NCBI GenBank assembly: GCA_045599825.1 | Contig: JAZRWR010000113.1 | Coordinates: forward strand, 3,938 to 67,937 | Origin: Bianqueaceae bacterium | GTDB lineage: Bacteria > Bacillota > Clostridia > Lachnospirales > Bianqueaceae | Reading direction: 5' to 3' | DNA length: 64,000 nt | Part shown: one piece after another, positions 10,344-41,925 of the stretch | How positions within the stretch are numbered: the stretch's first letter is position 1 | How the letters are laid out: every line of letters starts with the position of its first letter | Notes under the pieces: model-generated | The model's input: the letters and a program-made list of their open reading frames with translations, nothing else | Database searches by the model: none | Told to the model about the DNA's origin: nothing | Translations under genes and position numbers: made by a program

Positions 10344-11031
10344 GCATTACGAGGAGGTGCGCGGGCTGATTGACGAGGCCTGCCGCCGCGCCGGCCGGGA
10401 TCCCGCTGAGGTCCGGCTGCTGGCGGTTTCCAAGACGAAGCCGCTCGGCATGCTGGAGGAGCTGTTATCCTGCGGCGTGTGCGCCTTCGGCGAGAACAAG
10501 GTGCAGGAGCTTTGCGAAAAGTACGATGCGCTGGCGGCCTGCAGTACGCTGCCCAAGGCGGAGTTCCACATGATCGGCCATCTGCAGCGCAACAAGGTCA
10601 AGTATCTGGAAGCGCGCGAAATCGCCCTGATTCACTCGGTGGATTCCCTGCGCCTGGCTGAGGAAATCAACAAGGAAGCCGGAAAACACGGCCGCGTACA
10701 GCCCGTTCTTCTGGAAATCAACATCGGTGCGGAGGCCTCGAAAAGCGGGGCCGCGCCTGAGGAAGCGGTATCGCTTGCGCGTCAGATAAACGGTCTGCCC
10801 AACCTGAAGCTCGCCGGGCTCATGTGTGTCGCGCCGGCCGCGGACGATCCCGAGCAGGTCCGTCCCTGCTTTGCCCGGATGCGCGCGCTCCGCGACGAAA
10901 TCGGCGCTTTCGCCCCGGACTGCACGGAGCTTTCCATGGGCATGTCCGGCGATTTCGAGGCAGCCGTAGAGGAGGGGGCCACGCTGGTCAGGGTCGGCTC
11001 GGCCATCTTCGGCGCCCGCAATTACGCATAA
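10327..11031 (+). CDS. YggS/YlmE family pyridoxal-phosphate-binding protein
   Basis: Motifs present: LLAVSKTKP (PLP Lys), FGENKVQE, MIGHLQRNKVKY, SMGMSGDF. GGAGG lies 7 nt upstream of ATG 10327. Confidence 0.85.
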   Translation: MPELYKHYEEVRGLIDEACRRAGRDPAEVRLLAVSKTKPLGMLEELLSCGVCAFGENKVQELCEKYDALAACSTLPKAEFHMIGHLQRNKVKYLEAREIALIHSVDSLRLAEEINKEAGKHGRVQPVLLEINIGAEASKSGAAPEEAVSLARQINGLPNLKLAGLMCVAPAADDPEQVRPCFARMRALRDEIGAFAPDCTELSMGMSGDFEAAVEEGATLVRVGSAIFGARNYA

Positions 11032-11052
11032 CAGGAAAGGAATTAATCACGC

Positions 11053-11559
11053 ATGAAACTGACGTCCGCAGAGGCGGCCAAGCTGCTTCGGAAATACAAT
11101 GACGAAATCGAGAATCTGATCAGCCGGGAGAATCTCGGCAAGGAATTCCTGGCGTCCGTCGGCGAGGACACTGAGTCTGTCCGTCCCGTCTACAGCTACG
11201 AGGAAACACGTGAGGCACTGGACGCGCTGAATACCAAAATCCGCAAGCTGAAGCATGCGCTCAACATCTTCAATTCCACGCAGCTGATCCCCGAGTTCAA
11301 TATGACCATCGATGAGATGCTCATCTATCTGCCTCAGCTGACCGAGCGCCGCTTCAAGCTGAATAATATGAAGAACCGCCTGCCGAAGATTCGCGAGAAC
11401 GCGATGCGAAACACCGCCATCATCGATTACCGCTACACGAATTACGATATCGCCGCAGTCGCGGCCGATTTCGCGGCGGTCTCCGACGAGCTCTCCCGCG
11501 CTCAGAACGCGCTGGATAAAATCAACAGCAGCGTGTACTTTGAGGTAGACGAACTGTAA
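11053..11559 (+). CDS. Hypothetical protein (168 aa, predicted helical/coiled-coil)
   Basis: Clean ORF with host-like codon usage. I recognise no family. Confidence 0.45.
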   Translation: MKLTSAEAAKLLRKYNDEIENLISRENLGKEFLASVGEDTESVRPVYSYEETREALDALNTKIRKLKHALNIFNSTQLIPEFNMTIDEMLIYLPQLTERRFKLNNMKNRLPKIRENAMRNTAIIDYRYTNYDIAAVAADFAAVSDELSRAQNALDKINSSVYFEVDEL

Positions 11560-27603: not shown

Positions 27604-30510
27604 ATGAAGCAGTTAAAGAAGACCTTCGCTTTGTTCCTTTCCATGCTTCTTTGCCTGTCTGCCGTTCCCGCCGTCGGCGCTTTTGCCGATGAGGGCGGCT
27701 CCGACGAGGAAAGCGGTCTGATTTTGGACAAGTGGTACACTCCAAAAGCCGATTCCGGTGAAGGCATCCTGACGCTCGAAACCTACGTCAAGGGTACGGT
27801 CGTTCATACGACTACGGTAGTCAGCCAGCCGCTTGACATTGTTCTGGTGCTGGATGTATCCGGCTCCATGGATGATTCCCTTTCCGCCAGCGGCGCCAGC
27901 GGATATTCGGTCAGGACGGGTGTCTCTTATAACAACGCGAACCAGCGGAATTTCTATTTCCGCGAAGGAAACACCTATTACCGCGTTTATGCGCACAGAA
28001 CGGGCTTCGGTCTGGATGCTTATTATTACCTGAGCTTTACCAAGGACGGAACAGAATACTTCCTGAAGGGCGATTCGTATACGGAGGATATTTCTTCCGC
28101 TTGGGTCAGCAGCGGCAGCACAGCGATTTACACGGAAACGCTTTACTATTCGCTGGGGTACTCTCCCTCTAAGCTGGATGTATTAAAGAGCGCCGTAGCC
28201 GGCCTGATCGATACAGTCTATGCCGATGCCATTGCCAATGAGGTTGATCACCGTATCAGCATCGTCACCTTCGCTTCTTCGGCAAATACGGTTGACGAGC
28301 TGGTATCCGTAAGCGAAAACTATGACAGGCTGATAAAGGATACGGGCGCTCTGAGAGCAAACGGTGCTACGGCGGCCGACTACGGTCTTCAATCTGCCGA
28401 TACCGTTATGCAGGACGCCCGTTCCGACAGCAACAGGGTCGTCATCTTCTTTACTGACGGTGAGCCGAATCATAACAGCGGCTTCGACGGATCGGTTGCG
28501 ACCAAGGCAATCACGGCAGCTAAGAGCCTGAAGGATGACGGAGCCAAGGTCTATTCCGTCGGCGTATATGATGCGAGCTCCGGTGGAGGCGGCTGCGGAG
28601 GCGGCTGTGACGATGAGGCCGACCTTACCACTGTCATGAACTACATGCACGCCATCTCCTCCAACTATCCCGCTGCGACTTCTTATACGAGCAGTACCAT
28701 GGGCACCGGCAGCGATCTGGGTTATTCGCTGATGGCCGGTAATGCAGGCGAGCTTTCCGGTATTTTTGAGACAATTACCAAGGAGGCGGTCGAGGGTTCG
28801 GCCCGCATTCAGCTTGATGCCGATGCGGTCGTGCTGGATAAAATTTCCGACTATTTTGAGCTGCCTGAAGGCATTGAAGAAAAAGACATTAAGGTTTATT
28901 ATGCCGATTATCTCGGCAACGACAGCTGGAGTGAGAAGCGGGCTTTCACGGCTGCTGCATTGGAGCTTGATGTGAAGAATAAGCAGGTCCGCGTTTCCAA
29001 CTTTGACTTTGCTTACTACTTCGTTCCCGAGGACGGCGCGGCCAAAAACAGCAACGGAATTAACGGCCGCAAGCTGATTATTGAAATCCCCATTGTCGAT
29101 AACGGCACCGGCTTCGGAGATGTGCCTACCAATACGGGCGATTCCGGTGTTTATCAGAATGAAGAGAAGGTCGAAAACGGCGAGAGCGTTGATCGCTATC
29201 CCATCCCTGAAACGACCTTCCCGAGCTTCACTGTTATTCATTCCTCCGACAGTTCTGCGGATAAGATTCGTCTTTCCTCCGTCGGTACTGAGGGCTTTGA
29301 TCTTTCTGCCATCGTGAAGGAGGGCCATCTTTACGGTGGCTACTATCACTACGAAAACAGCACGGTAGGGGCTCCCTATACCTCGAGCGGTCTGACGCTT
29401 CAGCCTGCGGACGGTGCGGTATACTTCCTGCAGGAGGTGCCCAAGACCTATCTGCGTCCGGCCACTCTGTCCCTTTCCTCCAAGGGTGTTAAGTATACCT
29501 GGATGCTGACCGCTATTGACAGCCTGAACTACAAGCTGGCCGGCTTTGATGTGGCCGGTAAGGATATCAGTCTGACCGTACCGGAAGCGGCGGCGGAGCA
29601 GGACAGCTTCTGCAAGAGCAGCGCGGACGAGATGGACGCGGTCTGCGAGACAATCCATGTGGAAATGGTCTACGGAAAGACGTACGATTACGATGTTCTG
29701 ATGGTTTCCGGCAACCTCGACGGTTACATAGTCTGCCTGCGCTTCAGCAATCCGGAGAGCTATATCGATAACGGAAGCTTTGATGTTCATCCCTATTTTG
29801 TCACACCCGATAATGTCAAGGTTACCGGCGATACGGTCCGTACGTTGACCTACACTTCAGCCAATCTGACTGAGACTGCGTCCGGAACGGGTGCGAAGAA
29901 CCCTGTTTCCTCGGATGTGACGGATTTTGACGAATATGTCTCCGCTGCGCCCTATGCGCCTCTCCGGCTGATGAGCTTCGTGCCTCTGCGTGCGGTTCCC
30001 TCCAAGTCTCTTGAGGTTGTAGAGCCTGCGCCTCAGGCTCCCGTCGAAGAACCCGAGGCCGTTGAGGAGCCTGCAGGAGAGCCTGAGGTCGCTGAGGAAC
30101 CTGCGGAGGAATCTGCGGTCGTCGAAGAGCCGGCGGAAGAAACCGCGGAAATCGCTCCCTCGGATGCGTCTGATTATGAAGCCCCTGAGCAGGTCATTCC
30201 GGAGGAAGAGCCCGCTGAGGAGCCTGAGCAGAAGGAAAGAGTTACGCCGGTTATTCCGGATCCCGTCGTTGTAGAGCCCGAGGAAGAGCCTGCTCTTATT
30301 GAAAAGCCTGCCGAAGACGCGGCTGAAGCGCCCGTTGATGAAGCGGAGGATGTGCCGGCTGAGGAGCCTGCGGATACGGAGCCGGAAGCTGAGCACGCGG
30401 ATGAGGCTTCGACCGAAGAGGCCGTTATTATGCCTGCGATCAGCTGGCTGCTTCGCGTTCTGACTGCGGTCAGCACCTTCCTGGCCCGTCTGTTCGGTTT
30501 TGTGAAATAA
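27604..30510 (+). CDS. Secreted/cell-surface von Willebrand factor A domain protein with a Pro/Glu-rich stalk and a C-terminal hydrophobic anchor (968 aa)
   Basis: Signal peptide MKQLKKTFALFLSMLLCLSAVPAVGAFA. vWA MIDAS block VLVLDVSGSMDD, then IVTFASSA, GATAADYG, VVIFFTDGEPN. The C-terminus is an EEPAE-type repeat region followed by ISWLLRVLTAVSTFLARLFGFVK. No LPXTG motif. Confidence 0.8.
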   Translation: MKQLKKTFALFLSMLLCLSAVPAVGAFADEGGSDEESGLILDKWYTPKADSGEGILTLETYVKGTVVHTTTVVSQPLDIVLVLDVSGSMDDSLSASGASGYSVRTGVSYNNANQRNFYFREGNTYYRVYAHRTGFGLDAYYYLSFTKDGTEYFLKGDSYTEDISSAWVSSGSTAIYTETLYYSLGYSPSKLDVLKSAVAGLIDTVYADAIANEVDHRISIVTFASSANTVDELVSVSENYDRLIKDTGALRANGATAADYGLQSADTVMQDARSDSNRVVIFFTDGEPNHNSGFDGSVATKAITAAKSLKDDGAKVYSVGVYDASSGGGGCGGGCDDEADLTTVMNYMHAISSNYPAATSYTSSTMGTGSDLGYSLMAGNAGELSGIFETITKEAVEGSARIQLDADAVVLDKISDYFELPEGIEEKDIKVYYADYLGNDSWSEKRAFTAAALELDVKNKQVRVSNFDFAYYFVPEDGAAKNSNGINGRKLIIEIPIVDNGTGFGDVPTNTGDSGVYQNEEKVENGESVDRYPIPETTFPSFTVIHSSDSSADKIRLSSVGTEGFDLSAIVKEGHLYGGYYHYENSTVGAPYTSSGLTLQPADGAVYFLQEVPKTYLRPATLSLSSKGVKYTWMLTAIDSLNYKLAGFDVAGKDISLTVPEAAAEQDSFCKSSADEMDAVCETIHVEMVYGKTYDYDVLMVSGNLDGYIVCLRFSNPESYIDNGSFDVHPYFVTPDNVKVTGDTVRTLTYTSANLTETASGTGAKNPVSSDVTDFDEYVSAAPYAPLRLMSFVPLRAVPSKSLEVVEPAPQAPVEEPEAVEEPAGEPEVAEEPAEESAVVEEPAEETAEIAPSDASDYEAPEQVIPEEEPAEEPEQKERVTPVIPDPVVVEPEEEPALIEKPAEDAAEAPVDEAEDVPAEEPADTEPEAEHADEASTEEAVIMPAISWLLRVLTAVSTFLARLFGFVK
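30010..30420 (+). repeat. Low-complexity Pro/Glu/Ala-rich repeat region (EEPAE-like units) inside the vWA gene
   Basis: VEEPEAVEEPAGEPEVAEEPAEESAVVEEPAEETAE...EEEPAEEPE...EEPADTEPE. Confidence 0.8.
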
Positions 30511-30525
30511 GGAGGAAGAAAGATT

Positions 30526-30690
30526 ATGAATCCTTTTCTTTATACTGTCTATGACGGAAACGGAAATGAAATCGGCATGGTCAGTATGCCCTGGTCCCAG
30601 ATCGATTTTACGCCTGCGGCCGGGATTATTAACTTCGACGGTCATACCTACCGTCAGCTTGATGACAACACGCTGCAATTGCTGCGATAA
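30526..30690 (+). CDS. Unlisted small ORF, 54 aa (MNPFLYTVYDGNGNEIGMVSMPWSQIDFTPAAGIINFDGHTYRQLDDNTLQLLR)
   Basis: Hand-translated, below the 60-aa cutoff of the ORF track. GGAGG at 30511-30515 lies 10 nt upstream of ATG 30526. TAA at 30688-30690. A GC-rich hairpin plus T-tract follows at about 30703-30735. Confidence 0.45.
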   Translation: MNPFLYTVYDGNGNEIGMVSMPWSQIDFTPAAGIINFDGHTYRQLDDNTLQLLR

Positions 30691-30746
30691 CAGTAATAAT
30701 TTGGCGGTACCGCAATCGGCGCCGCCTTTTCTCTTGGAGATACAGA

Positions 30747-31490
30747 ATGCATTATATTACGTTTCCGTTGGCCGGACACAGGCTGGCCTACGCAACGGAC
30801 GACGATAAGTGCGCATCCTATTTGGAGGCGTACCGGAGGCTCTGTGAGGAATGCCGGGCATCCGCTCAGAACGCGGTAAGCGAAACGCTTTTCATGCTAA
30901 GCGAGGAGGAGTGCCGGAACGCGTCCGCGCACTACCCCGCGTGCTCGAGCCGGACCGAGGTTGAAATGGGGGAACTGCTTTTTCAAACCTCCTCGTATCT
31001 TTTGCGCCATGAGGCCTGTCTGTTCCACGGAGTCGCGTTTCTGTGGCGCGGCAGGGCGTGGATCTTTACCGGTCCGAGCGGCGCAGGAAAGAGCACGCAG
31101 TATATGCAGTGGAAACTGCGCTATCCGGAGGAGCTCGTGATCATCAACGGCGACAAGCCGGTCATCAGCCGCGGCGCAAACGGGAAGTTTTTCGCGTCCG
31201 GCTCTCCCTGGAACGGGAAAGAACATTTCGGGCAGGCGCTTGAGGCGCCCCTGGGCGGTGTGATATGGCTGGATCAGTCGAAGGAGAACCGCCTGGAGTC
31301 CATGAGCCCGGAGCAGGCGGCGCCGCGTCTGTTTCTGCAGTTTCTGCTGCGTCCCGCAGATGAGGCGGAGCTTGCGCGGCTGATTGCCCTCGAGGAGGCA
31401 TTGCTTGCGCAGGTGCCGGTGTGGCATTTAATGAATTTGGGCGACCGCGCGTCGGCTGAGCTTCTGCACGACGCTTTGGCGGAAGCATAA
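30747..31490 (+). CDS. HPr-kinase-related P-loop protein (HprK C-terminal-domain-like)
   Basis: LFHGVAFLWRGRAWIFTGPSGAGKSTQY matches the H(A/G)..........G.SG.GKS block of HprK-related kinases found in peptide-modification cassettes. No HPr-kinase N-terminal domain. Confidence 0.6.
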   Translation: MHYITFPLAGHRLAYATDDDKCASYLEAYRRLCEECRASAQNAVSETLFMLSEEECRNASAHYPACSSRTEVEMGELLFQTSSYLLRHEACLFHGVAFLWRGRAWIFTGPSGAGKSTQYMQWKLRYPEELVIINGDKPVISRGANGKFFASGSPWNGKEHFGQALEAPLGGVIWLDQSKENRLESMSPEQAAPRLFLQFLLRPADEAELARLIALEEALLAQVPVWHLMNLGDRASAELLHDALAEA

Positions 31491-31511
31491 GAGAAAGATG
31501 GGTTTACCGAT

Positions 31512-31802
31512 ATGATGAAATATCAGCTGAGGGACGGTGTCGTTCTGGCGGAGCTGTGTCACCAGCCGATGCTGGTCGCGACCGGCCCTGCGCTCGACCA
31601 CTGCGCCTATATGAGTCTGATGAATGACGACGCCGCATTTTATCTGAGACTGCTGGCAAATCCGCAGACGGTCTCGCAGATGGCGGCCGCTGCTGCGGTG
31701 CAATACGAGCAGAGCGAGGAAACCATGACAGCCATTGTGGAGCAGTTCATGGATTTCCTGGTCCAAAGAGGCTATGTGATACAGGTGAACGGCGATGAGT
31801 GA
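31512..31802 (+). CDS. PqqD-family protein (second copy, 96 aa)
   Basis: Pattern present: ...GVVLAEL..QPMLVA....LNDDAAFYLRLL...QTVSQMAAA.A.QYE.SEETMTAIVEQFMDFLVQRGYV. Confidence 0.6.
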   Translation: MMKYQLRDGVVLAELCHQPMLVATGPALDHCAYMSLMNDDAAFYLRLLANPQTVSQMAAAAAVQYEQSEETMTAIVEQFMDFLVQRGYVIQVNGDE

Positions 31803-33126
31803 GAGACTGAGCGAACGAGTCGAAGCGCTTTTTATCCGCATCCTTTCGGATTCTCTGCGGGGCGAAGCGTCGCCTGCGGCCTCGGAGCTTGCCGGCGAAG
31901 AAGAGGCGGCCGCGCTTCTGTCTTTGGCGCAGCGGCAGATGGTGCTGCCTTTGGTGCTCGAGGCCTGCCGTGACAGCCGGACCGTTCTGGAGCTTCCGAT
32001 GCTTCCGGAAATCCGCGTGCGCGCCTGCGCGTCCGTCGCGCATCAGATGGTCTACGACCGGCAGACACGCGAGCTCCTGTGCGCCGCCTATGAGGCCGGC
32101 TTCACGCCGCTGGTGCTGAAGGGCGTGATGTGCCGGCGCATCTATCCCGCGGGCAGTCTGCGTCCCTCCTCGGATGAAGACTTCTATCTGCGCCCGGAGG
32201 AGTTTCAGGGCTTCTGCCGTTTCATGACGGAGCAGGGCTTCAGCCGCGCGGATGACGGTCCTGCCGATGCGAAGGAGCCGGGCGAGCGCTGCTACTCGAG
32301 TGAAAAAACCGGCCTCTGTGTGGAGCTGCATCCCTGCTTTTTCTCAAAAGAAAAGGCCTTTGCCAGGGTCGAGACCGCGCTTTCGGACGCCTACGAGCGT
32401 CGGACCTGGTACGACTGCGACGGTCGGGTGTGCGACACCGTCGCCTCCCTCCTGCGGGCCCGGAAGCCGCGAAACGACGGCAAGCGGACAGCGTCCCTTT
32501 TTCAGGATAAGCTCTGTCTGTCGCTTTCTCCGACCGATCATCTTTTTTATCTGCTCGCTCATGCCTACAAGCATTTTCTTTACAGCGGCTTCGGCATCCG
32601 GCAGGTGCTGGACATCGGCCTGTGGGCCGGGAACTACGACCTGGAGCTGGACTGGACATCGCTTCTCAGAACGTTGGAGCGCTGCAGCATGAACGGCTTT
32701 GCGTCGGCGGTGCTCAGGCTGGCGCGCGACTGTTTCGGTATCGGAATCAGGCTGCCGGAGAAGCTGGCGGCGGACGAAACTCCGCTCGAACCGATGCTGA
32801 ACGATCTTCTGGATGCCGGCATCTACGGCTCCTCCGAGCTCAGCCGGCTGCACTCCGCGCCCATCCTGCTGGAGCGCGCGTCGGAGGGTGAGGACCGGAG
32901 TCCCGCTCGGCAGCTGTTCCCGCGCGCGAAGGCTCTGGAGAGCCGTTATCCCTTCCTGAGGGAGCGTCCGTGGCTCCTGCCCTGGGCCTGGCTGAAGCGC
33001 GACTGCGCCTACGTCAAGGAAACACTGACCCGCCGCGACAGCAAGATGATGCGGACGCTTCGGATTGCGGAAGAGCGTACGGAGCTGGCGCGTCTGTACG
33101 GCGTGCTTCCGGGAAAAAAGCAATAA
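31795..33126 (+). CDS. Uncharacterised nucleotidyltransferase family protein (NTP_transf_5-like, 443 aa)
   Basis: VLKGVMCRRIYPAGSLRPSSDEDFYL (LKG...YP....R...D.D) and VELHPCFF blocks are present. ATGA overlap with the preceding PqqD gene. Confidence 0.6.
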   Translation: MSERLSERVEALFIRILSDSLRGEASPAASELAGEEEAAALLSLAQRQMVLPLVLEACRDSRTVLELPMLPEIRVRACASVAHQMVYDRQTRELLCAAYEAGFTPLVLKGVMCRRIYPAGSLRPSSDEDFYLRPEEFQGFCRFMTEQGFSRADDGPADAKEPGERCYSSEKTGLCVELHPCFFSKEKAFARVETALSDAYERRTWYDCDGRVCDTVASLLRARKPRNDGKRTASLFQDKLCLSLSPTDHLFYLLAHAYKHFLYSGFGIRQVLDIGLWAGNYDLELDWTSLLRTLERCSMNGFASAVLRLARDCFGIGIRLPEKLAADETPLEPMLNDLLDAGIYGSSELSRLHSAPILLERASEGEDRSPARQLFPRAKALESRYPFLRERPWLLPWAWLKRDCAYVKETLTRRDSKMMRTLRIAEERTELARLYGVLPGKKQ

Positions 33127-33189: not shown

Positions 33190-34026
33190 TCAGGCCAGGC
33201 AATGCTCCAGATAGGCCTGCGCCAGACGGCGGTAGGTTTCGCCGTCCTTCATGGCGATGGGGCAGCCGTCCAGGGTCTTGCCGCGTTTTGTGAAGGTGGA
33301 GGAGCCGGTCACCAGGACCTCGTCCGCGGCGAACAGCTCATCGCGCGTAAAGACGCGTTCCTCGACGGGGATGCCGAGCTTGCGTGCGCAGAGCATCACG
33401 TGCTTTTTGGTGATGCCGGGAAGGATCAGTTCGCTGTCGGGACGGGTGATGAGCACACCGTCCTTCAGGATCATGACGTTTGTGTGGCTGCCCTCGGTGA
33501 CGGTCCCGTCGGGGCGGATCTGGACGGCCTCGTAGGCGCCGGCCTCGTGCGCGGCCTGGTTGGCCATGACGTTGCCGTAGAGATTGAGGGTTTTCACATT
33601 GCAGAAGTGGTGGCGGCGGTCCTCGACCGTGATGAAATCAACCGGGGCGAAGACATCGGGCAGCTTCTTGGCGCTGACGGTGATGAGCAGGTTGGGTTTG
33701 GTGCCCTCCGGCGGGAAAAAGTGCGTGCGGGGGGCGGTTCCGCGGCTGGTCTGCCAGTAGATCATGGCGGCCGGGGCGTCGATGCGGCTGTTCAGATCCA
33801 GGAGGAGGGCGGTCAGCTCTTCCTTGGACCAGATGGGCTCGATGCGCATCAGCCGCATGCTGTTGAAGAAGCGGTCGACATGATCCTTGAGATCGATCGG
33901 TTTGCCGTTAACGACGTAGGCCGCATCGTAACAGCCGTCGCCGAAGAAGAGCGCGCGGTCCAGGAAGGGAACGGTCAGTTCCTCTGGCGCGCCGATTTGT
34001 CCGTTATAATAAGCGATATTGGTCAT
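33190..34026 (-). CDS. Class IV aminotransferase (D-amino-acid / branched-chain type, 278 aa)
   Basis: FLDRALFFGDGCYDA, GAYEAV...DGTVTEGSHTNV and ILPGITK blocks are typical of fold-type IV PLP enzymes. Start set at ATG 34026 after AAGGGA. Confidence 0.8.
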   Translation of the reverse strand: MTNIAYYNGQIGAPEELTVPFLDRALFFGDGCYDAAYVVNGKPIDLKDHVDRFFNSMRLMRIEPIWSKEELTALLLDLNSRIDAPAAMIYWQTSRGTAPRTHFFPPEGTKPNLLITVSAKKLPDVFAPVDFITVEDRRHHFCNVKTLNLYGNVMANQAAHEAGAYEAVQIRPDGTVTEGSHTNVMILKDGVLITRPDSELILPGITKKHVMLCARKLGIPVEERVFTRDELFAADEVLVTGSSTFTKRGKTLDGCPIAMKDGETYRRLAQAYLEHCLA

Positions 34027-34168
34027 AACAATCCCTTTCTTTCTGAAAGCGCTGCCCTTATTATAGCGCAAAAGCCTGTTTTGGCAAGGTTTTTCGGGCG
34101 GAGGAGGACAACCGCAGGGCTGGGGCAGCTTCTCGTGCAGACGCGAGGGTTTTGAAGCGTTTGATGAA

Positions 34169-34195
34169 CAAAAAAACATCCACAGACTGTGGATG
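34169..34195 (-). terminator. Terminator of the tRNA operon
   Basis: CATCCAC / GTGGATG hairpin at 34177-34195. On the minus strand it is followed by the T-run complementary to the A-run at 34169-34176. Confidence 0.6.
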
Positions 34196-34204
34196 TTTAA
34201 GAAT

Positions 34205-34278
34205 TGCGTGCAGCAGGATTCGAACCCGCGGCCTTCTGGTCCGTAGCCAGACGCTCTATCCAGCTGAGCTATGCGCGC
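34205..34278 (-). tRNA. tRNA-Arg (anticodon ACG)
   Basis: Reverse complement folds as a cloverleaf: GCGCGCA-TA-GCTC..GAGC-TCTGG-CTACGGA-CCAGA-..-GCGGGTTCGAATCCTGC-TGCACGC-A. One C-A mismatch in the acceptor stem. CCA is not encoded. Confidence 0.85.
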
Positions 34279-34282
34279 ATAA

Positions 34283-34353
34283 AGCGGGTGAGGGGAATCG
34301 GACCCCCGTATCCAGCTTGGAAGGCTGGTGTTCTACCATTGAACTACACCCGC
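34283..34353 (-). tRNA. tRNA-Gly (anticodon TCC)
   Basis: Reverse complement is GCGGGTG-TA-GTTCAATGGTAGAAC-A-CCAGC-CTTCCAA-GCTGG-...-CACCCGC-T. CCA is not encoded. Confidence 0.85.
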
Positions 34354-34415
34354 AAGTAGTGGGGTAACAGTAGAACAAAAGACCTGTCAGCAAAATGCGG
34401 CTTGACAAAGTCAAA

Positions 34416-34488
34416 TGCCCAGAACCGGAATCGAACCAGTGACACGGGGATTTTCAGTCCCCTGCTCTACCAACTGAGCTATCTGGGC
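34416..34488 (-). tRNA. tRNA-Phe (anticodon GAA)
   Basis: Reverse complement is GCCCAGA-TA-GCTCAGTTGGTAGAGC-A-GGGGA-CTGAAAA-TCCCC-...-GGTTCGATTCC-...-TCTGGGC-A. CCA is not encoded. Confidence 0.9.
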
Positions 34489-34499
34489 ATAAGGTGTTG

Positions 34500-34586
34500 T
34501 GCCGGTGACCGGGATCGAACCGGTACGGTCGTATTAGGACCGTGGGATTTTAAGTCCCATGCGTCTGCCAATTCCGCCACACCGGC
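34500..34586 (-). tRNA. tRNA-Leu (anticodon TAA), long variable arm
   Basis: Reverse complement is GCCGGTG-TG-GCGGAATTGGCAGACGC-A-TGGGA-CTTAAAA-TCCCA, then a long variable arm (CGGTCCTAATACGACCG) and GGTTCGATCC. Length 87 nt. Confidence 0.85.
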
Positions 34587-34632: not shown

Positions 34633-34661
34633 ATATTAGCACAGTACCTTTGCAGTGTCAA
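34633..34661 (-). promoter_or_regulatory. Near-consensus sigma-70 promoter of the tRNA operon
   Basis: On the minus strand: TTGACA (34661-34656), a 17-nt spacer, then TAATAT (34638-34633). The -35 element overlaps the stop codon of the upstream GTPase-NYN gene. Confidence 0.6.
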
Positions 34662-37252
34662 GGATTATTTGAAAGATTTTCGATGAAATTGTCGATTTGG
34701 GCCAGAACGCGGCCTAATTCCGCGCGGAATTCGCGGGAAGAGAGGCGCAGCACGCCTGCGCGCAGGGCGCTCAGCTGGATCAGGGCATCCGAGGTGACCA
34801 CGCGCACGCGCAGGTCCCGGCCGAGGCCGCTGACGAAGCGCTCGATAAAGGCATCGGCGGTTTCGCGCTCCCGCGTGTAGACCACGTGGATGCCGCCCTC
34901 GTCGCTGCGTTCGCCCTCGTTCTCGGGCACGCGGTAGGCGTCGAAGACGACCAGAAGCTGACATCCGGTGAAGGACTGGTAGTTTACCAGCGCACGGATG
35001 AGGCGGTCCCGGGCCATGGAAAGGTCCGCAGCAGCCAGCTGCTTTAGCTCGTCCCAGGAGAAGATTAGGTTGTAGCCGTCGACCAGGAAGAAGCTGCCTT
35101 CGCCGCCGAAGAGGCCGAGGCGGACAGGGTCCTCGTCGATTTCCTCGGAGAGATAAAGGCGGCGCTCCTCACGGGTGAAGAGGGGACGCTTGATCGGCCC
35201 GAATTCGCGCAGCATGATGGCCTCAAGCTCTCTGTCGTCCAGCGAGCGAGGCACGGAGGAGGGAGCTTTTTCGGCAGACTCCGGGGCGGACTTGTCCTTG
35301 CGGAAGGGAAGGTGCATGTAGGCGGGGACTTCGTTCCAGGGGACGGTGCGCCCGGCTCCGTGCGAGCAGAAGACCGAGTCGGGGGTGTCGGCCAGGTTGT
35401 CGTAGGGACGGTAAGCGGCGGCTTCTATGACCTCGCCGGCATTGTGGCAGGGCGACCAGCCATCGGGCTCGAGACTCAGGCTGCCGCGTCCGGCGGTGTA
35501 GGCGGCCAGCTCACGCGCGTAGCCGTTCAGGGTCGCAACGGGTCCGCGGCCGCACAGAAGGACCGTTTCGCTGCCCTCGGGGGCCTCCATGGAGGCGTGG
35601 CGGAGCTTGAGATCGGTCATGGCTCGTCCCAGCTGCTCGGCGGGAAGCTGCAGGCGGAAGCGGTACATCGGCTCCAGCAGGGCCAGCTTGCCCTCGGCGC
35701 GGGCCTGCATGAGGCCCTGGCGGACGGCCCGGTAGGTGGCCTGGCGGAAGTCGCCGCCCTCCGTGTGCTTCTCGTGCGCACGGCCGGCCACGAGGCTGAG
35801 GCGGACATCGCTTAAGGGCGCGCCGATCAGGACGCCGCGGTGCTCCTTTTCGGCCAGATGCGTCAGGATCAGGCGCTGCCAGCCGCGGGCCAGCTCGTCC
35901 TCGGCAAGCTCCGAGCACAGCTCCAGACCGCTGCCTTCGGGCAGCGGCTCCATCATCAGATGCACCTCGGCGTAATGGCGCAGCGGCTCAAAATGACCGA
36001 CGCCCTCCACGGAGCCGGTCAGGGTCTCGCGGTACAGAATACGGCCCTCCGCAGCGCTGATGCGGATGCCGAAGCGCTCCAGGACGGTCGCCTCCAGCAC
36101 CTCGGTCTGGACGGCACCCATCAGATCGGCCTCGATTTCCTCGCTTTCGCGGTTCCAGCGCAGCCGAAGCGCGGGGTCCTCCTCGGCCAGCCCGCGGATC
36201 GTCTCAAAGACGGCTTTCGCGTCCGCTCCTTCCTCGGGGATCAGACGGTAGCTCATGACCGGCTTTAAGCGCGGCGCCGGAGCGCTTTCCTCGGGCGATG
36301 CCGCCGCGCCGAAATATCGGCCGCTCATAAGACTGCCGAGGCCGGTCAGCGCCGCGCAGTCGCCGGCCTCCAGCCGTTCGGCGGCCTGGAACCGGGCCCC
36401 CTTCAGGAGCCGGATCTGCGTCACCTTTTCGGCGGCGTTCGTGCCGTCTGGCAGGGCGATGCTGACGGAGTCGCGGACAGTCAGGCTGCCCGACAAAAGC
36501 TTGATATGTGCCAGCCGGACCTCGTTTTCGTCCCGGCTGATTTTGAAGCAGAAGGCCCGGAGCGCGCCGTCCGCAGGATATTCGCGCGCCAGTCCGGCCA
36601 GACAGTTTAAGAGCGCCTCGGTGCCGACGTTCTTCAGCCCCGAGCCGAAAAAGCAGGGGAAGAGGCGGCGTGACATGACGGCGGAGGCGATGTCCTCGTC
36701 GCTCAGGCAGCCCTCGCGCTCGTAGCGCATCAGCATCGCCTCGTCGCTTAGGGCGGCGGCTTCCTCGCGCAGCGCCCGTTCGCGGTCAAAGCGGACGATA
36801 TCGCGGTCGAGCTCCCTGCGAAGACCCTCCAGAAGCTCCTCCTCGTCCAAACGGGAAAAGTCCATTTTGGACACGAAGAGGAGGGTGGGCACGCGGTATT
36901 CTTTTAACAGCCGCCACAGCGTCACCGTGTGGGCCTGCACGCCGTCCAGACCGCTGATGACCAGCACGGCGGCGTCCAACGCCAGAATGCTGCGCTCGGC
37001 CTCGGCGGAAAAGTCGATGTGGCCGGGCGTGTCCAGAAGCGTCATGCGCGCACCGGCGTATTCAAGGGAGGCCGTGCCGGTGAAAATCGTGATGCCGCGG
37101 CGCTTTTCGAGCTCGTGCGCATCCATCACGCTGGTCCGGCCGTTCACGCTGCCGGCACTGCGGATGGCGCCGCTGTGGAAGAGCAGGGCTTCCGCCAGCG
37201 TCGTTTTGCCCGCGTCCACATGGGCTACCAGTCCTACGGTCAGCTTCTTCAT
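34658..37252 (-). CDS. TetM/EF-G-family translational GTPase fused to a C-terminal Rae1/YacP-type NYN endoribonuclease domain (864 aa)
   Basis: N-terminus: VGLVAHVDAGKTTLAEALLFHSGAI..GSV..GTSVMD..ELEKRRGITI, DTPGHIDF, VSKMD (G1-G4), followed by EF-G domain II-V-length sequence. C-terminal ~165 aa: FFLVDGYNLIFSW..LK, YQSFTGCQLLVVFDA, YTRERETADAFIE, VRVVTSD. These align block by block with B. subtilis YacP/Rae1. AAAGGAG lies 9 nt before ATG 37252. Confidence 0.85.
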   Translation of the reverse strand: MKKLTVGLVAHVDAGKTTLAEALLFHSGAIRSAGSVNGRTSVMDAHELEKRRGITIFTGTASLEYAGARMTLLDTPGHIDFSAEAERSILALDAAVLVISGLDGVQAHTVTLWRLLKEYRVPTLLFVSKMDFSRLDEEELLEGLRRELDRDIVRFDRERALREEAAALSDEAMLMRYEREGCLSDEDIASAVMSRRLFPCFFGSGLKNVGTEALLNCLAGLAREYPADGALRAFCFKISRDENEVRLAHIKLLSGSLTVRDSVSIALPDGTNAAEKVTQIRLLKGARFQAAERLEAGDCAALTGLGSLMSGRYFGAAASPEESAPAPRLKPVMSYRLIPEEGADAKAVFETIRGLAEEDPALRLRWNRESEEIEADLMGAVQTEVLEATVLERFGIRISAAEGRILYRETLTGSVEGVGHFEPLRHYAEVHLMMEPLPEGSGLELCSELAEDELARGWQRLILTHLAEKEHRGVLIGAPLSDVRLSLVAGRAHEKHTEGGDFRQATYRAVRQGLMQARAEGKLALLEPMYRFRLQLPAEQLGRAMTDLKLRHASMEAPEGSETVLLCGRGPVATLNGYARELAAYTAGRGSLSLEPDGWSPCHNAGEVIEAAAYRPYDNLADTPDSVFCSHGAGRTVPWNEVPAYMHLPFRKDKSAPESAEKAPSSVPRSLDDRELEAIMLREFGPIKRPLFTREERRLYLSEEIDEDPVRLGLFGGEGSFFLVDGYNLIFSWDELKQLAAADLSMARDRLIRALVNYQSFTGCQLLVVFDAYRVPENEGERSDEGGIHVVYTRERETADAFIERFVSGLGRDLRVRVVTSDALIQLSALRAGVLRLSSREFRAELGRVLAQIDNFIENLSNNP

Positions 37253-37322
37253 CGCGAGGGTCTCCTTTCTTTTTCGGTGAAAATATTATATTCAAAATAT
37301 GCGCGGAAAATCAAGTCGCTAC

Positions 37323-37389: not shown

Positions 37390-39225
37390 ATGGGCCGTGG
37401 AGGAAGTCTTGGTGGTCCGAGAGGATTTTTGACCGAGGAAGAGAAGAAAAATAAACCGAAGGTAACCTGGCCGCTGATCAAGCGCATTCTGAGTTACTTA
37501 AAACCGTACTGGTGGCAGTTTTTACTGGTGTTCGTCGCCATTCTGCTGTCGGCTGTCATCGGCCTGCTGCCGTCTATCATTACCGGTAAGATCGTCGACC
37601 AGGCGCTGGTCGGCGAGGATATGCGCCTGCTGATTTTCCTGCTGATCGCCGCCTTTGTCACGATGACGGTGTCCAAGGTCATCGGCGTGCTTGAAAGCTA
37701 TATCAACTCCTGGATTTCCCGCCGCATCATCTTCGACATGAAGAATCAGATGTACCGTCATCTGCAGTCGATGCCGCACTCCTTTTTCACCTCTGAGAAG
37801 CAGGGCGACATCATCACCCGCATGAACAGCGACATCAACGGCGTCAGCTCCGTCATTTCCGGCACGCTGACGAGTGTGGTTTCGAACATCGCCACCCTGG
37901 TCACCAGTATCGTGGCGCTGCTCTCCATGAGCTGGATGCTGGCCCTGGTAGGTGTCATCGTCATCCCGCTTCTCATCATCCCCACCAAGAGCGTCGGCCA
38001 GAGCCGCTGGAAGCTTCTGACCGAAAGCCAGGCAAAGAACGACGAAATGAATCAGCTGGTCAACGAGACCCTGAGCGTCAGCGGCTCCATGCTGGTCAAG
38101 CTCTTCACCCGCGAGGAAAAAGAGTACGAGCGCTTTGAAAAGGTCAACGAGGAGGTCACGCAGCTGTCCCTGAAGGAGCAGCGCAGCGGCCAGTGGTTCC
38201 GCGTGCTGATGGGCATGTTTACCGAGGTCGGCCCGCTTCTGATCTATTTTGCGGGCGGCTTTCTGATCATCAATAAGCTCGATACGAGCCTGACCGTCGG
38301 TACCATTACCGCCACGGTCTCCCTGATCAACCGCCTGTACCGCCCCGTGCAGTCTCTCTCCGAGATTTCGGTCGACTTCACCCGTTCCATGGCGCTGTTT
38401 ACCCGTATTTTCGATTACTTTGATATGGAAGTCACCATCAAGTCGCCTGAAAACGGCCGGAAGCCCGATGTTACGGATCAGCCCATCTGCTTTGACCACG
38501 TGGCCTTCCAGTATCTGCCGGACAAGCCTCTGCTTTCCGATATCAACTTCACCGTTCCCGGCGGCAAGATGTATGCCATCGTCGGCCCCAACGGCTCCGG
38601 AAAATCCACCGTCGTCAACCTTATTCCGCGTCTGTACGACGTCTGCGGCGGCGCGGTCACTGTGGCCGGCGTCGATGTCCGCGACTTCGACCTGACCTAT
38701 CTGCGTGAGCAGATCGGCGTGGTCACCCAGGACACCTACCTCTTCAACGGCACCATCCGCGAGAACCTGCTTTACGCCAAGGATGACGCCACGCAGGAGG
38801 AAATCGAGGAGGCCTGCCGCATCGCCAGCATCCACGACTTCATCATGAACCAGCCCGACGGCTACGATACCGAAGTCGGCAACCGCGGCCTGAAGCTGTC
38901 CGGCGGTGAAAAGCAGCGTATCTCCATCGCCCGCGTTATTCTGAAGAACCCCAAGATCCTGATCCTGGACGAGGCCACCTCCGCTCTGGACTCCATCTCC
39001 GAAAGCTCCATTCAGGATGCGCTTGAGGCGCTGATGGCCGGCCGCACCAGCATCGTCATCGCCCACCGTCTTTCCACCATTCTGGAGGCCGACAGCATCC
39101 TGGTCGTCTCCGGCGGCACGATCGCCGAGCAGGGCACGCATGAGGAGCTGCTGGAGGCGGGCGGTGTTTACCGCAATCTCTACGAGACCCAGTTCCGCCA
39201 GGTCCTTGACATGGAAGGGAAATAA
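37390..39225 (+). CDS. ABC exporter, fused permease/ATPase (MsbA/multidrug type, 611 aa)
   Basis: Six-TM domain. Walker A GPNGSGKST, signature LSGGEKQRISIARV, Walker B ILILDEATSALD, H-loop IAHRLST. Confidence 0.85.
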   Translation: MGRGGSLGGPRGFLTEEEKKNKPKVTWPLIKRILSYLKPYWWQFLLVFVAILLSAVIGLLPSIITGKIVDQALVGEDMRLLIFLLIAAFVTMTVSKVIGVLESYINSWISRRIIFDMKNQMYRHLQSMPHSFFTSEKQGDIITRMNSDINGVSSVISGTLTSVVSNIATLVTSIVALLSMSWMLALVGVIVIPLLIIPTKSVGQSRWKLLTESQAKNDEMNQLVNETLSVSGSMLVKLFTREEKEYERFEKVNEEVTQLSLKEQRSGQWFRVLMGMFTEVGPLLIYFAGGFLIINKLDTSLTVGTITATVSLINRLYRPVQSLSEISVDFTRSMALFTRIFDYFDMEVTIKSPENGRKPDVTDQPICFDHVAFQYLPDKPLLSDINFTVPGGKMYAIVGPNGSGKSTVVNLIPRLYDVCGGAVTVAGVDVRDFDLTYLREQIGVVTQDTYLFNGTIRENLLYAKDDATQEEIEEACRIASIHDFIMNQPDGYDTEVGNRGLKLSGGEKQRISIARVILKNPKILILDEATSALDSISESSIQDALEALMAGRTSIVIAHRLSTILEADSILVVSGGTIAEQGTHEELLEAGGVYRNLYETQFRQVLDMEGK

Positions 39226-39235
39226 GCGGGGACGC

Positions 39236-39264
39236 TTGCGCGATATTTCGATTAATGGTATAAT
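39236..39264 (+). promoter_or_regulatory. Putative promoter
   Basis: TTGCGC (39236-39241), a 17-nt spacer, then TATAAT (39259-39264). Confidence 0.45.
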
Positions 39265-39326
39265 ATATACAAGCAAAAAGCAGCCAGCTTTTTGAGTAAG
39301 TTTTTCATTGTAAAGGAGATTTGAAA

Positions 39327-39881
39327 ATGTCTGATATCAATATCAATGAAGTAGTTGATAAGGTTGTCACCACTGCCAAGGACTGGGCCGGCGTTGCTGC
39401 TCAGCTTGCCACGCAGGGCTTTGACCTCGGCAAGGCTGAATATGAAATCAAAACGAGTGAGCTGAAGCTGGAGCGCGCCTATAAGGCGCTTGGCCGTCTG
39501 GCTTATGAGGTCGAGACCGGCGCGCTGAACCGCGATGACGAGGTTTTCGGCGCCGCTATTGCCCAGATCAAGGAAGCGCTTGAGAAGATCGAGGGTCTGA
39601 AGGCCAGCATGACCGAGATCAAGTCCCGCGAGATCGTCCGCAGCAAGCCCACTGCCGAAAAGAAGGCCGAGGAAGCCTGCGAAGATCTGGAGAAGACCGT
39701 CGAAGACGCCGTAGAAGACGTCAAAGATTTTTTTGAGTCTGCGGCTGAGAAAGCCGCTGAAACCGTAGAAAAAGTCGAGGAAAAGGCGGAAGGCTGCCTT
39801 CTCATGAAGTTCTGCCCCGTCTGCGGAGTCGGCAACGAGCCCGATGCCGCCAAGTGCACGAACTGCGGACATGAGTTCTGA
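39327..39881 (+). CDS. Hypothetical coiled-coil protein with a C-terminal zinc ribbon
   Basis: Helical, acidic protein ending in CPVCGVGNEPDAAKCTNCGHEF (CxxC...CxxC). ATG 39327 lies 9 nt after AAAGGAG. Confidence 0.5.
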   Translation: MSDININEVVDKVVTTAKDWAGVAAQLATQGFDLGKAEYEIKTSELKLERAYKALGRLAYEVETGALNRDDEVFGAAIAQIKEALEKIEGLKASMTEIKSREIVRSKPTAEKKAEEACEDLEKTVEDAVEDVKDFFESAAEKAAETVEKVEEKAEGCLLMKFCPVCGVGNEPDAAKCTNCGHEF

Positions 39882-40125
39882 TTTGAATAAGTATTTGATC
39901 TGCCAGCACCCCTCTCATGCGGCGCTGGCAGAAATTTTCACAAAAAGCCAATATGAAAAGGCCCTTCGGAACGATCCCGCGTATGAGCTGATCGGCTCGG
40001 CGCCCACGCGGGCGGCCGCGGTCGAGCGCATCGGCAGTGCTCTGGTATACGCGCTGGCCGGCCCCGACCGGGATACGCAGAAGGTCAAGACCATCCTGAA
40101 GGCCCTTCTCTTCGGCACCCTGTGA
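39871..40125 (+). CDS. Hypothetical protein (84 aa)
   Basis: ORF whose ATG overlaps the preceding stop (ATGAGTTCTGA). No family recognised. Confidence 0.35.
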   Translation: MSSDLNKYLICQHPSHAALAEIFTKSQYEKALRNDPAYELIGSAPTRAAAVERIGSALVYALAGPDRDTQKVKTILKALLFGTL

Positions 40126-40144
40126 ATAAAAACGGGACTGCTGC

Positions 40145-40852
40145 ATGAAAAAATCCATCCGAATTCTGTTAAGTGTCATGGCCGCCTTCGGGCTGGTTGT
40201 GACCTGCTTTTTCGGCTCCTTCAAGGCCGTCGTGTTCAACCGCCGCTTCATCAATTCCGAAACGGCGCGCTACGGCGTGGCCGCGTTGACGCATATGCAG
40301 CAGGAGGAGGTTGACCACGTCTTCGATGAAACACTGAAGTATCTGGAGCATCGCCGGGACGATCTGGTCATCGACACCGTGGTAGCGGGTCAGGCACGCG
40401 AAGCCTACAATCAGCAGGAAAAGCTGCATATGGTGGATGTGCTGGGACTCTTTGACGCCGGCTACGTGATTTATTACGCGGCTATCGGCTGCCTGCTGGC
40501 GGCTGCGGCCGTTCTCCTGGCGGTCAAAAAAGAGCAGAAAAAAGAACTGGCGGCAAGCTATGCGCGGGCCGTGCTGATCGGCTTTGTCATTTTTTTCCTT
40601 TTGGCAGCCGTGATCGGCATCCTCTTTTATACCGACTTTGACCGGTATTTTGTGCTTTTCCACGAAATTTTCTTTGATAACGATTTGTGGCTGATGGACC
40701 CCCGCACCTGCCTGATGATCAACCTGATGCCGGAGGATTTCTTCTTTGACATCGTGATGAAATTCGGCACGGTCTTCCTCATTCTGGCGGTTGTGCTGAT
40801 GGCGGGCTCGGCAATCTTTCTTCTGCTGCGGAAACGGAAGAAGAGCACATGA
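40145..40852 (+). CDS. TIGR01906/DUF1461 family integral membrane protein (Lit, lipoprotein intramolecular transacylase-like)
   Basis: Characteristic block FHEIFFDNDLWLMDPRTCLMINLMPEDFF, flanked by TM helices. Confidence 0.7.
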   Translation: MKKSIRILLSVMAAFGLVVTCFFGSFKAVVFNRRFINSETARYGVAALTHMQQEEVDHVFDETLKYLEHRRDDLVIDTVVAGQAREAYNQQEKLHMVDVLGLFDAGYVIYYAAIGCLLAAAAVLLAVKKEQKKELAASYARAVLIGFVIFFLLAAVIGILFYTDFDRYFVLFHEIFFDNDLWLMDPRTCLMINLMPEDFFFDIVMKFGTVFLILAVVLMAGSAIFLLLRKRKKST

Positions 40853-41925
40853 TCATATTAAAGATACTGCTGTGGCTGATTCTGTCGGTATTCTTTCTGC
40901 TGCTTCTCGGACTGGTGCTGATTCTGACGGTGCCGCTTCGTTACCGCATCCGCGCAGCCAAGCTTCCCTTTGAGGGGCAGAGCTTTACGGATACCGTCAG
41001 CGAAAAAATGATGATCCGCTTCGGGAACGGGGAAGAAGAACCGTCGGACACAAGTCTTTCACTGCCTTTTGAGGCAGAGGTTTGGGCCGGCTTTCTGGCC
41101 AAAATCTTTCAGCTTCAGCTCGGCTATGTGAAGGAGGGTTATTTCCGATTCCTGATATTCGGGAAGGATGCTGCGGACGGCAAGCCGAAGAAAAACGGCA
41201 AAAAGCCGAAGGAGAAGAAAAAGAGCACTGAAAAGAAGCAGGCTGAAGCGGTGAAGCCCGACGAAAAACCGGCAGAGGCACCGCGGGATGATGCACCGAA
41301 GGCGGACGCCCCGCAGGACGCAGCAGCAGACCCGGAAGCCTCGGGGAAAACACCCGCCGAAGTGCAGGACCCGGCGCATCAGGCACTCTCCGTTCCGTCG
41401 GCGGAGACGCCTCAGGAGCCTGGGCCCGAGTCGGAGGCCGGTTCCGAAAAAACCAAAGAACCGCTTTCCGAAAAGGCTGACCGCCTTCTTGAAAAAATCG
41501 GAGAGGTGCTGGATAAAGCCGATTATTATCTGGATCTGCTCGCGGATAACGCCGAGGGCATCCGTCAGGTAATGAGCTGCCTGTTCCGCGTGCTGAAGAA
41601 GATTTTTCCGAGGCGCGGGCAGATGCAGCTTCAGTTCGGTCTGGCCGACCCGTATGATACCGGCCGCGTGCTGGCTGTCTGGTCGGTCCTGGAGCCGGCG
41701 CTCGTCACGGAGAAGCGGCAGCTGCAGGTCGAAGCCGATTTTGAGCGGAAGCGTCTGGAGGCAGACGGCTGGATGGAAGGGCATTTTTCGCTCGGCGGTC
41801 TAGCGGCCCCGCTTGTGGGCGCGCTCCTTCACAAGCCCGTGCGCAGACTAATCCGGACCGTTCTCAGGCTCAGCGGCAGGGGCAAGCAAAAAAAAGAAAA
41901 GAAACCGGCTGAAAAAGCCGCATAA
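40849..41925 (+). CDS. DUF2953 (YtfI-like) sporulation-associated protein with a Lys/Pro/Glu/Ala-rich insertion
   Basis: N-terminal TM helix. Sits immediately upstream of a GerW/YtfJ homolog, as in B. subtilis ytfI-ytfJ. ATGA overlap with the upstream gene. The central region is low-complexity. Confidence 0.5.
   Translation: MIILKILLWLILSVFFLLLLGLVLILTVPLRYRIRAAKLPFEGQSFTDTVSEKMMIRFGNGEEEPSDTSLSLPFEAEVWAGFLAKIFQLQLGYVKEGYFRFLIFGKDAADGKPKKNGKKPKEKKKSTEKKQAEAVKPDEKPAEAPRDDAPKADAPQDAAADPEASGKTPAEVQDPAHQALSVPSAETPQEPGPESEAGSEKTKEPLSEKADRLLEKIGEVLDKADYYLDLLADNAEGIRQVMSCLFRVLKKIFPRRGQMQLQFGLADPYDTGRVLAVWSVLEPALVTEKRQLQVEADFERKRLEADGWMEGHFSLGGLAAPLVGALLHKPVRRLIRTVLRLSGRGKQKKEKKPAEKAA

Follow-up and report, generated by a model that had tools for sequence, protein, structure and literature searches.

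A conserved chromosomal gene in many gut Clostridia joins a translational GTPase to a Rae1/YacP-type endoribonuclease domain

A 64,000-nucleotide (nt) stretch of a Bianqueaceae bacterium genome (assembly GCA_045599825.1, contig JAZRWR010000113.1, positions 3,938 to 67,937), called the window here, carries a minus-strand gene at 34658-37252 that encodes a translational GTPase followed in frame by a Rae1/YacP-type NYN endoribonuclease domain. The original prediction, made from the letters alone, described one 864-residue open reading frame (ORF) with this architecture. The single ORF was confirmed, with an ATG start at 37252, and all of the motifs quoted for it (AHVDAGKTTL, RGITI, DTPGHIDF, SKMD, LVDGYN, VVFDA, ETAD, and VVTSD) are present. 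A Pfam profile search verified the assignment to the EF-G family and to Rae1/YacP and defined the domain borders. The features of the gene are as follows.

37285..37314, minus strand: sigma-70-type promoter-like site, TTGATT-18 nt-TATAAT, a 10/12 consensus match about 30 nt 5' of the ATG
37261..37268, minus strand: strong ribosome-binding site AAAGGAGA, read from the sequence, 8 nt 5' of the ATG at 37252
36596..37243, minus strand: G domain (GTP_EFTU), residues 4-219, Pfam E = 2.4e-44
36320..36559, minus strand: domain II (EF-G_D2), residues 232-311, Pfam 26.2 bits, slightly below the 27-bit cut-off, a confident β-barrel in the AlphaFold2 model
36056..36265, minus strand: domain III (EFG_III), residues 330-399, Pfam 30.8 bits, cut-off 27
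35702..36046, minus strand: domain IV (EFG_IV), residues 403-517, Pfam E = 4.4e-17
35441..35680, minus strand: domain V (EFG_C), residues 525-604, Pfam E = 2.1e-16
35303..35452, minus strand: family-specific C-terminal extension (CTE1), residues 601-650, from conservation and the AlphaFold2 model
35093..35302, minus strand: flexible tether, residues 651-720, from low AlphaFold2 confidence
34661..35092, minus strand: Rae1/YacP-type NYN endoribonuclease domain, residues 721-864, from the Pfam NYN_YacP match at 723-859
34658-34660, minus strand: stop codon, end of the 864-residue fusion ORF

The five-domain order of the EF-G/Tet group is complete, with EFG_III, EFG_IV, and EFG_C above their Pfam cut-offs and EF-G_D2 just below. 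The G domain contains G1 AHVDAGKT (residues 10-17), G2 RGIT (T55), G3 DTPGH with the catalytic His78, and G4 SKMD (128-131). These motifs and His78 are invariant in 70 relatives, which suggests that the GTPase half is active. The long G' insert of EF-G is missing, as seen from the gap against the Klebsiella EF-G paralogue in the alignment. AlphaFold2 was run on a 70-sequence alignment and returned a model with a mean predicted local distance difference test (pLDDT) score of 84; a Foldseek search with the GTPase recovered the EF-G fold (E = 1e-51) and taught nothing further. Conservation in a 120-sequence alignment is highest in domain IV, with a mean top-residue frequency of 0.85-0.90 per 20-residue block. 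The domain IV tip loops, VEGVGHFEPLRHYAEVH (residues 414-431) and GRAHEKHTEGGDFRQATYRAVRQGL (490-514), are specific to the family and stand in place of the TetM loop III YYSPVSTPADFR.

The C-terminal YacP match is significant. The NYN_YacP model (PF05991) scored 147.9 bits (E = 3.6e-43, cut-off 24.6) over residues 723-859, and this part aligns with residues 4-142 of the B. subtilis YacP/Rae1 crystal structure (5MQ8/5MQ9) with E = 9e-23. Identity to B. subtilis Rae1 is about 40% over 139 residues. The published catalytic double mutant of Rae1 is D7N D81N (PMC10351889). The counterparts of these aspartates are D725 and D800, and both are invariant in 70 sequences, as are D771, E797, and D822 of the NYN domain. 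The acidic active-site residues named in the original prediction are thus kept, and the retained catalytic aspartates suggest that the nuclease half is active as well.

The region between domain V and the nuclease had been described as an acidic or unstructured linker of about 70 residues, a description that holds in part. Residues 651-720 are modeled with low confidence. Residues 601-650 are confidently predicted to be structured, the tether is not net acidic (16 Asp/Glu versus 13 Lys/Arg in 651-720), and a helix is predicted within it at 673-684. The segment 601-650 is CTE1, which has the consensus PCHN..VI...YDPE.DL.NTPDSVFCaHGgG..V.W..V..YMHL with S626, V627, F628, C629, H631, G632, W639, and H647 invariant. 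The model folds it into a helix (605-612) and a hairpin (626-637) followed by another helix (639-645), at block-mean pLDDT values of 78-94, and no Pfam model matches it. The cysteine and histidine residues of CTE1 (C602, C629, H631, and H647) are 96-99% conserved among 150 representatives of 50%-identity clusters and may form a metal-binding site. With CTE1 alone as the query, 629 of 1.84 billion cluster representatives matched at E ≤ 0.001. Among the 150 matches listed, the proteins of about 800 residues or more have CTE1 near residue 590-700, some proteins of about 626-706 residues end in it, and numerous short proteins are probably fragments.

The tether beyond CTE1 has pLDDT values below 50 at 655-671 and 688-713. 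Between these segments lies the conserved helix DRELEAIMLREFGP (residues 672-685, window 35198-35239), and the variable, gappy part is confined to about 701-720. The spacing from the SVFC motif of CTE1 to the VDGYN motif of the nuclease has a median of 89 residues in 185 sequences, is 87-94 in most of them, and ranges from 84 to 117. This narrow distribution suggests that the length of the tether is under a geometric constraint, in the manner of a ruler.

A search of a 5.8-billion-protein collection returned at least 120 full-length relatives that are about 50% identical to the window protein and all have the same six Pfam domains; several of those listed are labelled as Oscillospiraceae, Ruminococcaceae, or Clostridia metagenome-assembled genomes (MAGs). 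The genome scan covered one genome per species and used the alignment of residues 596-864 as the query. At least 600 genome stretches matched, and at least 597 were confirmed to encode a relative. CTE1 and the NYN domain were spanned in all of the best 80 of these loci, which include Oscillospiraceae, Ruminococcaceae, Acutalibacteraceae, Faecousia, and Faecalibacterium MAGs, Intestinimonas butyriciproducens, Faecalispora jeddahensis, Oscillibacter, and one Lachnospiraceae MAG. Isolate genomes with the fusion are those of Monoglobus pectinilyticus, Agathobacter rectalis, and I. butyriciproducens. No second NYN copy was found in the window or in any locus, each covering about 10 kb on either side of the fusion.

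The ORF is unbroken in 70 of the 71 species loci that are not cut by a contig end. The sole broken copy, in a MAG (locus L028), has an in-frame TAA at codon 267 in the GTPase part (about 9029-9031), which marks either a pseudogene or an error of sequencing. The idea that faulty assembly or a frameshift has joined two separate genes has nothing beyond this one TAA in its favor; the continuous ORFs in the other complete loci, the independent isolates, and the many metagenome assemblies reduce its probability to a negligible level, and such an artefact was excluded. The fusion proposed in the original prediction is therefore conserved in related genomes and not split by a frameshift. Identity is 41-69% within the family and 46-69% among the fusions, and inheritance is apparently vertical. 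An architecture shared unbroken across species argues that the fusion is under selection. These results establish the fusion as a conserved, housekeeping-like chromosomal gene of many gut Clostridia.

The GTPase was described as TetM-like in the original prediction, and one alternative explanation is a tetracycline ribosomal-protection protein with an added RNase domain. Atkinson (PMC4342817) noted the TetM-like/NYN_YacP fusion of Clostridia in 2015 and suggested a variant resistance mechanism. In keeping with this proposal, tet_protect (NF012153) is the best NCBIfam model, and the NCBI annotation pipeline (PGAP) often names members as TetM/TetW/TetO/TetS family; other pipeline names are TetM family, EF-G, and "translation factor GTPase family protein". 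The fusion also shares with Tet(M) and Tet(O) (3J9Y and 4V6V) a five-domain EF-G-like body that lacks the long G' insert, a similar length up to domain V, and a loop III of equal length. The tet_protect score, however, is 389.5 bits, half of the 775-bit cut-off, and none of the Tet class or EF-G models in NCBIfam reaches its curated cut-off (NF033148, 250.9 versus 1100 bits; NF012155, 211.5 versus 1420; EF-G equivalog TIGR00484, 250.9 versus 659.4). TetM, TetO, and the EF-G paralogue are about equally distant from the GTPase body, at 27-32% identity (27-31% for TetM and TetO), well below the identity within the family, and EF-G structures came slightly ahead of TetM in phmmer and Foldseek searches of the PDB.

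Loop III and the C-terminal extension of Tet(M) are functionally important (PMC4750697). Loop III of the Tet proteins has a conserved YSPVS-type sequence that displaces tetracycline; it reads GRAHEKHTEGGDFR in the fusion and GLYYSPVSTPADFR in TetM/TetO, with EKH in place of SPV. The S508A/P509A/V510A triple mutant of Tet(M) stays active (PMC4750697), so the divergence of this loop is not decisive by itself. The C-terminal helix tail of TetM/TetO has no counterpart, and a different, conserved 50-residue extension with the Cys/His set follows domain V. The context is also unlike that of a resistance gene on a mobile element. No transposon, conjugative, or resistance-gene context was found in the window, in plasmid-labelled records, or at two metagenome places; the only recurrent neighbour in 80 loci is a YlmH-family gene (see below); and the divergence between species looks vertical, unlike that of a recently spread resistance gene. 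By these comparisons the GTPase is assigned to a separate subfamily of the EF-G/Tet group and not to the Tet proteins, and the TetM-like label was an overstatement. We consider a variant resistance protein quite unlikely. The EF-G and EF-G2 paralogues have the same fold and intact GTPase motifs, and the fusion differs from them in the missing G' insert, the domain IV tip loops, and scores far below the EF-G cut-offs.

The expression signals bear on the same comparison. The 5' untranslated region of the fusion gene is only about 30 nt and has no space for a tet(M)-type leader peptide or attenuator, and an Rfam scan returned four tRNAs only, with no riboswitch and no leader. A consensus scan counted 4 promoter-like sites in the upstream region against 0.7 expected from shuffles, and the match at 37285..37314 suggests that the gene is transcribed from its own promoter. 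The base composition around the gene is unremarkable.

The GTPase also exists without the nuclease. Plasmid pMP118 of Ligilactobacillus salivarius encodes a 644-residue homologue that stops just past CTE1, and a 658-residue unfused version is present in Subdoligranulum variabile (Oscillospiraceae). CTE1 is thus common to the fusions and to their nuclease-free relatives, where it forms the C terminus. The unfused form is chromosomal and widespread in Lactobacillaceae, with examples in Companilactobacillus, Levilactobacillus, Paucilactobacillus, Pediococcus, Lactiplantibacillus, and Limosilactobacillus. These proteins are about 60% identical to each other and 42-53% identical to the fusions, a range that overlaps the 46-69% found among the fusions. 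The overlap identifies fusion and non-fusion, at the level of sequence, as two states of one GTPase family. Latilactobacillus curvatus, another member of the Lactobacillaceae, has a stand-alone NYN_YacP gene. No conserved neighbourhood was found for the unfused lactobacillus form: on pMP118 the gene (L001, 5402-7920) adjoins rpsN (S14) and a "putative metal homeostasis protein", the latter of interest in view of the Cys/His motif, and this arrangement was not seen at three other Lactobacillaceae places inspected.

Clustering of the flanking ORFs from 80 species loci identified a sole recurrent neighbour, a YlmH-family S4-domain gene of about 248 residues that lies directly 3' of the fusion on the same strand. 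In 27 of 78 species loci (among them L007, L009, and L012) it overlaps the fusion stop codon by about 14 nt, an arrangement that independent gene calls reproduce; in L089 the gene lies at 10573-11319. The protein matches PF17774 (YlmH_RBD, 8.4e-13) and TIGR03069 (Sll1252 family, 1.4e-28). The linked loci fall in several blocks of the similarity tree, and their fusions are down to 49% identical. Judging from the overlap, the YlmH-family gene is translationally coupled to the fusion. YlmH has a role in ribosome-associated quality control (PMC11317155).

A different set of neighbours bears on the possibility that the protein acts in ribosome biogenesis or turnover or in stable-RNA processing, with the GTPase docked on ribosomes or their subunits and the NYN domain cutting rRNA or tRNA for maturation, for inactivation of damaged or idle ribosomes, or in a starvation response. 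YacP was first predicted to belong to the rRNA/tRNA processome from its operon with mrnC and rlmB (PMC5499597), and both B. subtilis and C. difficile were seen to have the canonical operon cysS-mrnC-rlmB-rae1-sigH. Pieces of it lie no more than 10 kb from the fusion in some loci, cysS in seven, mrnC in three, and rlmB in one, and a SpoU methylase or rsmH plus gltX adjoins the fusion in single cases (for rlmB, mrnC, or a SpoU methylase the distance is a few kb in some species; canonical-operon pieces or a SpoU methylase lie at L065 5715-6515, L060 11256-11648, L066 about 1296-1679, and L091 7016-7846). No stand-alone rae1 was found beside the cysS/mrnC/rlmB pieces near the fusion, which is suggestive only, and these pieces might be a trace of the origin of the NYN domain. 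A protein at the factor site would also be much nearer to rRNA than to the mRNA exit. Against this explanation, such neighbours are sporadic and unconserved, the YlmH link favors rescue of stalled translation over biogenesis, and all Rae1 substrates shown to date are mRNAs that are cut in a translation-dependent manner (PMC12407103, PMC13622287, PMC10351889). A stable-RNA role is accordingly judged unlikely, though a better candidate than tetracycline resistance.

The original prediction also raised an abortive-infection-like response, in which a toxin-like effector would shut off translation under stress or phage attack by cleaving RNA on ribosomes. PIN/NYN nucleases are frequent as toxin modules, and in Agathobacter rectalis a BrnT/CopG toxin-antitoxin pair (L003, 7310-7818) lies directly upstream of the 933-residue fusion on the opposite strand. 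This pair is missing from the neighbour clusters that recur in the 80 genome loci, in which no antitoxin or immunity partner is conserved, and PADLOC gave zero matches for the fusion protein or four neighbours. The gene occurs as one copy per locus in at least 80 species. Phage-borne copies were rejected, since the two human faecal virome records labelled "UNVERIFIED: Bacteriophage sp." that hold full fusions (MT835563 and MT835514; L087 5397-8024 and L088 9814-12423) are bacterial chromosome fragments with genes for FeoB, RsmH, GltX, a RelA/SpoT-type synthetase, glycerol kinase, and cardiolipin synthase. A mobile-plasmid reading was likewise rejected. The plasmid-labelled records examined that carry a family member (Monoglobus, Agathobacter, L. 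salivarius pMP118, and Subdoligranulum) measure about 150-520 kb, and those with annotation hold housekeeping genes; three are typed as non-mobilizable and pMP118 as mobilizable. A toxin-like or abortive-infection effector is highly improbable, and this part of the earlier proposal is left without support.

The surroundings of the gene in the window differ from the YlmH-linked loci. Upstream, a divergent gene encodes a fused ABC exporter (37390-39225). Downstream, a cluster of four tRNA genes (Leu-UAA, Phe-GAA, Gly-UCC, and Arg-ACG; 34204-34586, minus strand) lies on the same strand as the fusion and begins 72 nt past its stop codon. A promoter-like site (TTGACA-17 nt-TAATAT, 34633-34661) overlaps the stop codon, and the only terminator-like hairpin (34174-34198) follows the last tRNA, which would allow transcriptional read-through from the fusion gene to the tRNAs. 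The tRNA cluster was considered as a functional partner and rejected, as a tRNA is nearby in only 1 of 80 other loci. Beyond the tRNAs lies a class IV aminotransferase gene (33190-34179, minus strand; PF01063, E = 1.4e-42). A 337-residue plus-strand ORF at 33142-34155 matches no family and is probably a shadow of the aminotransferase gene. The further neighbours (27604-33126 and 37390-41925) are functionally unrelated and encode a 968-residue VWA-domain protein, an NTP_transf_5 nucleotidyltransferase, a zinc-ribbon/YtxH-like protein, a Lit lipoprotein transacylase, and a DUF2953 protein.

The architecture was already known from bioinformatics, which limits the novelty implied by the original prediction. 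After the 2015 report, Matelska et al. noted the TetM-like/NYN_YacP fusion in 2017 and left its role open (PMC5499597). The window protein is a member of this group, with identical architecture and the same taxa. The two papers filed the GTPase as Tet/TetM-like and knew about ten species; here it is placed in a separate, non-Tet subfamily that has its own structured Cys/His extension, a ruler-like tether, unfused relatives, and a YlmH linkage, and that extends to hundreds of species.

The nuclease half shares its NYN_YacP family and the catalytic D7/D81 pair with B. subtilis Rae1 (5MQ8), and the same job is expected of it, mRNA cutting where ribosomes stall or collide. B. subtilis Rae1 is free, about 170 residues long, and encoded in the cysS-mrnC-rlmB-rae1-sigH operon, whereas here the domain is the C terminus of an 864-residue GTPase encoded outside that operon. 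Recruitment to the ribosome would be built into the fusion, unlike free Rae1. The view of the first model, that Rae1 works from the A site, has been revised: the cut falls 12 nt upstream of the A-site codon, at the rear of ribosomes that have stalled or collided (PMC12407103; PMC13622287). The September 2026 preprint PMC13622287 reports that Rae1 makes transfer-messenger RNA (tmRNA) substrates on collided ribosomes; the words "fusion" and "GTPase" do not occur in it. The likeness of the fusion to SmrB of E. coli and to Cue2 and NONU-1 of eukaryotes, which are stall- or collision-sensing nucleases, and to Dom34-Hbs1, a GTPase-delivered A-site probe, is purely one of function, namely the initiation of rescue where ribosomes have stalled or collided. 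SmrB, Cue2/NONU-1, and Dom34-Hbs1 have unrelated folds and recruitment, and none of them unites a translational GTPase and a nuclease in one polypeptide.

We propose that the fusion is a chromosomal translation-surveillance factor, in which a Rae1 docked on the ribosome and gated by GTP cleaves mRNA where ribosomes have stalled or collided. Domain IV is the A-site probe in EF-G and TetM, and its rank as the best conserved region of the fusion counts in favor of this reading, as do the two seemingly active halves. In the proposed mechanism, the five-domain body in its GTP form would dock at the ribosomal factor-binding site, and the family-specific tip of domain IV would enter the decoding region of a stalled or collided ribosome with an accessible A site; a collided ribosome awaiting translocation would be a natural substrate of the EF-G type. 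The tethered NYN domain would then cut the mRNA at the edge of the bound ribosome or of its neighbour, comparable to free Rae1 at −12 nt from the A-site codon. The cut would yield a truncated message for trans-translation by tmRNA and/or for RqcH-YlmH, with a YlmH-type factor co-expressed in many species, and GTP hydrolysis would release and reset the factor.

The housekeeping-type chromosomal context, the conserved tether length, and the coupled YlmH-family gene in 27 of 78 species argue for the surveillance reading, and the biology of Rae1 fits it, with cuts made upstream of ribosomes that have stalled and substrates supplied to tmRNA when ribosomes collide. The part of the original prediction in which the GTPase delivers the nuclease for surveillance or rescue agrees with this evidence. 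Several points weigh on the other side. The window and about two thirds of the loci lack the YlmH linkage, the RNA that is cut could be rRNA or tRNA and not mRNA, and full-text literature searches, in agreement with the original prediction, found no experimental study on any member of the fusion family. Because the GTPase occurs nuclease-free in Lactobacillaceae and Subdoligranulum, the family is also expected from its distribution to have a function of its own. Ribosome binding, the mRNA substrate, the ribosome state recognised, and GTP gating are all inferred, and we give the complete mechanism a little less than an even chance. The broader claim of a ribosome-bound RNA-cleaving factor is much safer. 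A bolder version, which we regard as somewhat unlikely, is a single-polypeptide GTP-gated "no-go decay" factor in which the domain IV tip senses the stall or collision, the ruler-like tether places the Rae1 nuclease, and the Cys/His extension is a metal-binding docking element. The unfused Lactobacillaceae GTPase would then be the missing partner that recruits free Rae1 to the ribosome, by Rosetta-stone logic, or an independent stall sensor.

Rae1 has recently been established as the nuclease of Gram-positive bacteria that cleaves mRNA where ribosomes stall or collide and supplies trans-translation. A natural fusion of Rae1 to a factor-site GTPase in hundreds of abundant gut and rumen Clostridia provides an experimental handle on how Rae1 finds the right ribosomes. 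It predicts the site and the ribosome state at which the nuclease acts and suggests that the cut is under GTP control. In resistome surveys, genes of this family are likely to be called "tet" falsely. The new features of the family together with the 2025-2026 Rae1 results lead to a specific, testable rescue hypothesis, and they point to a GTPase subfamily that is routinely mis-annotated as a tetracycline-resistance protein or EF-G as a possible stall-surveillance factor.

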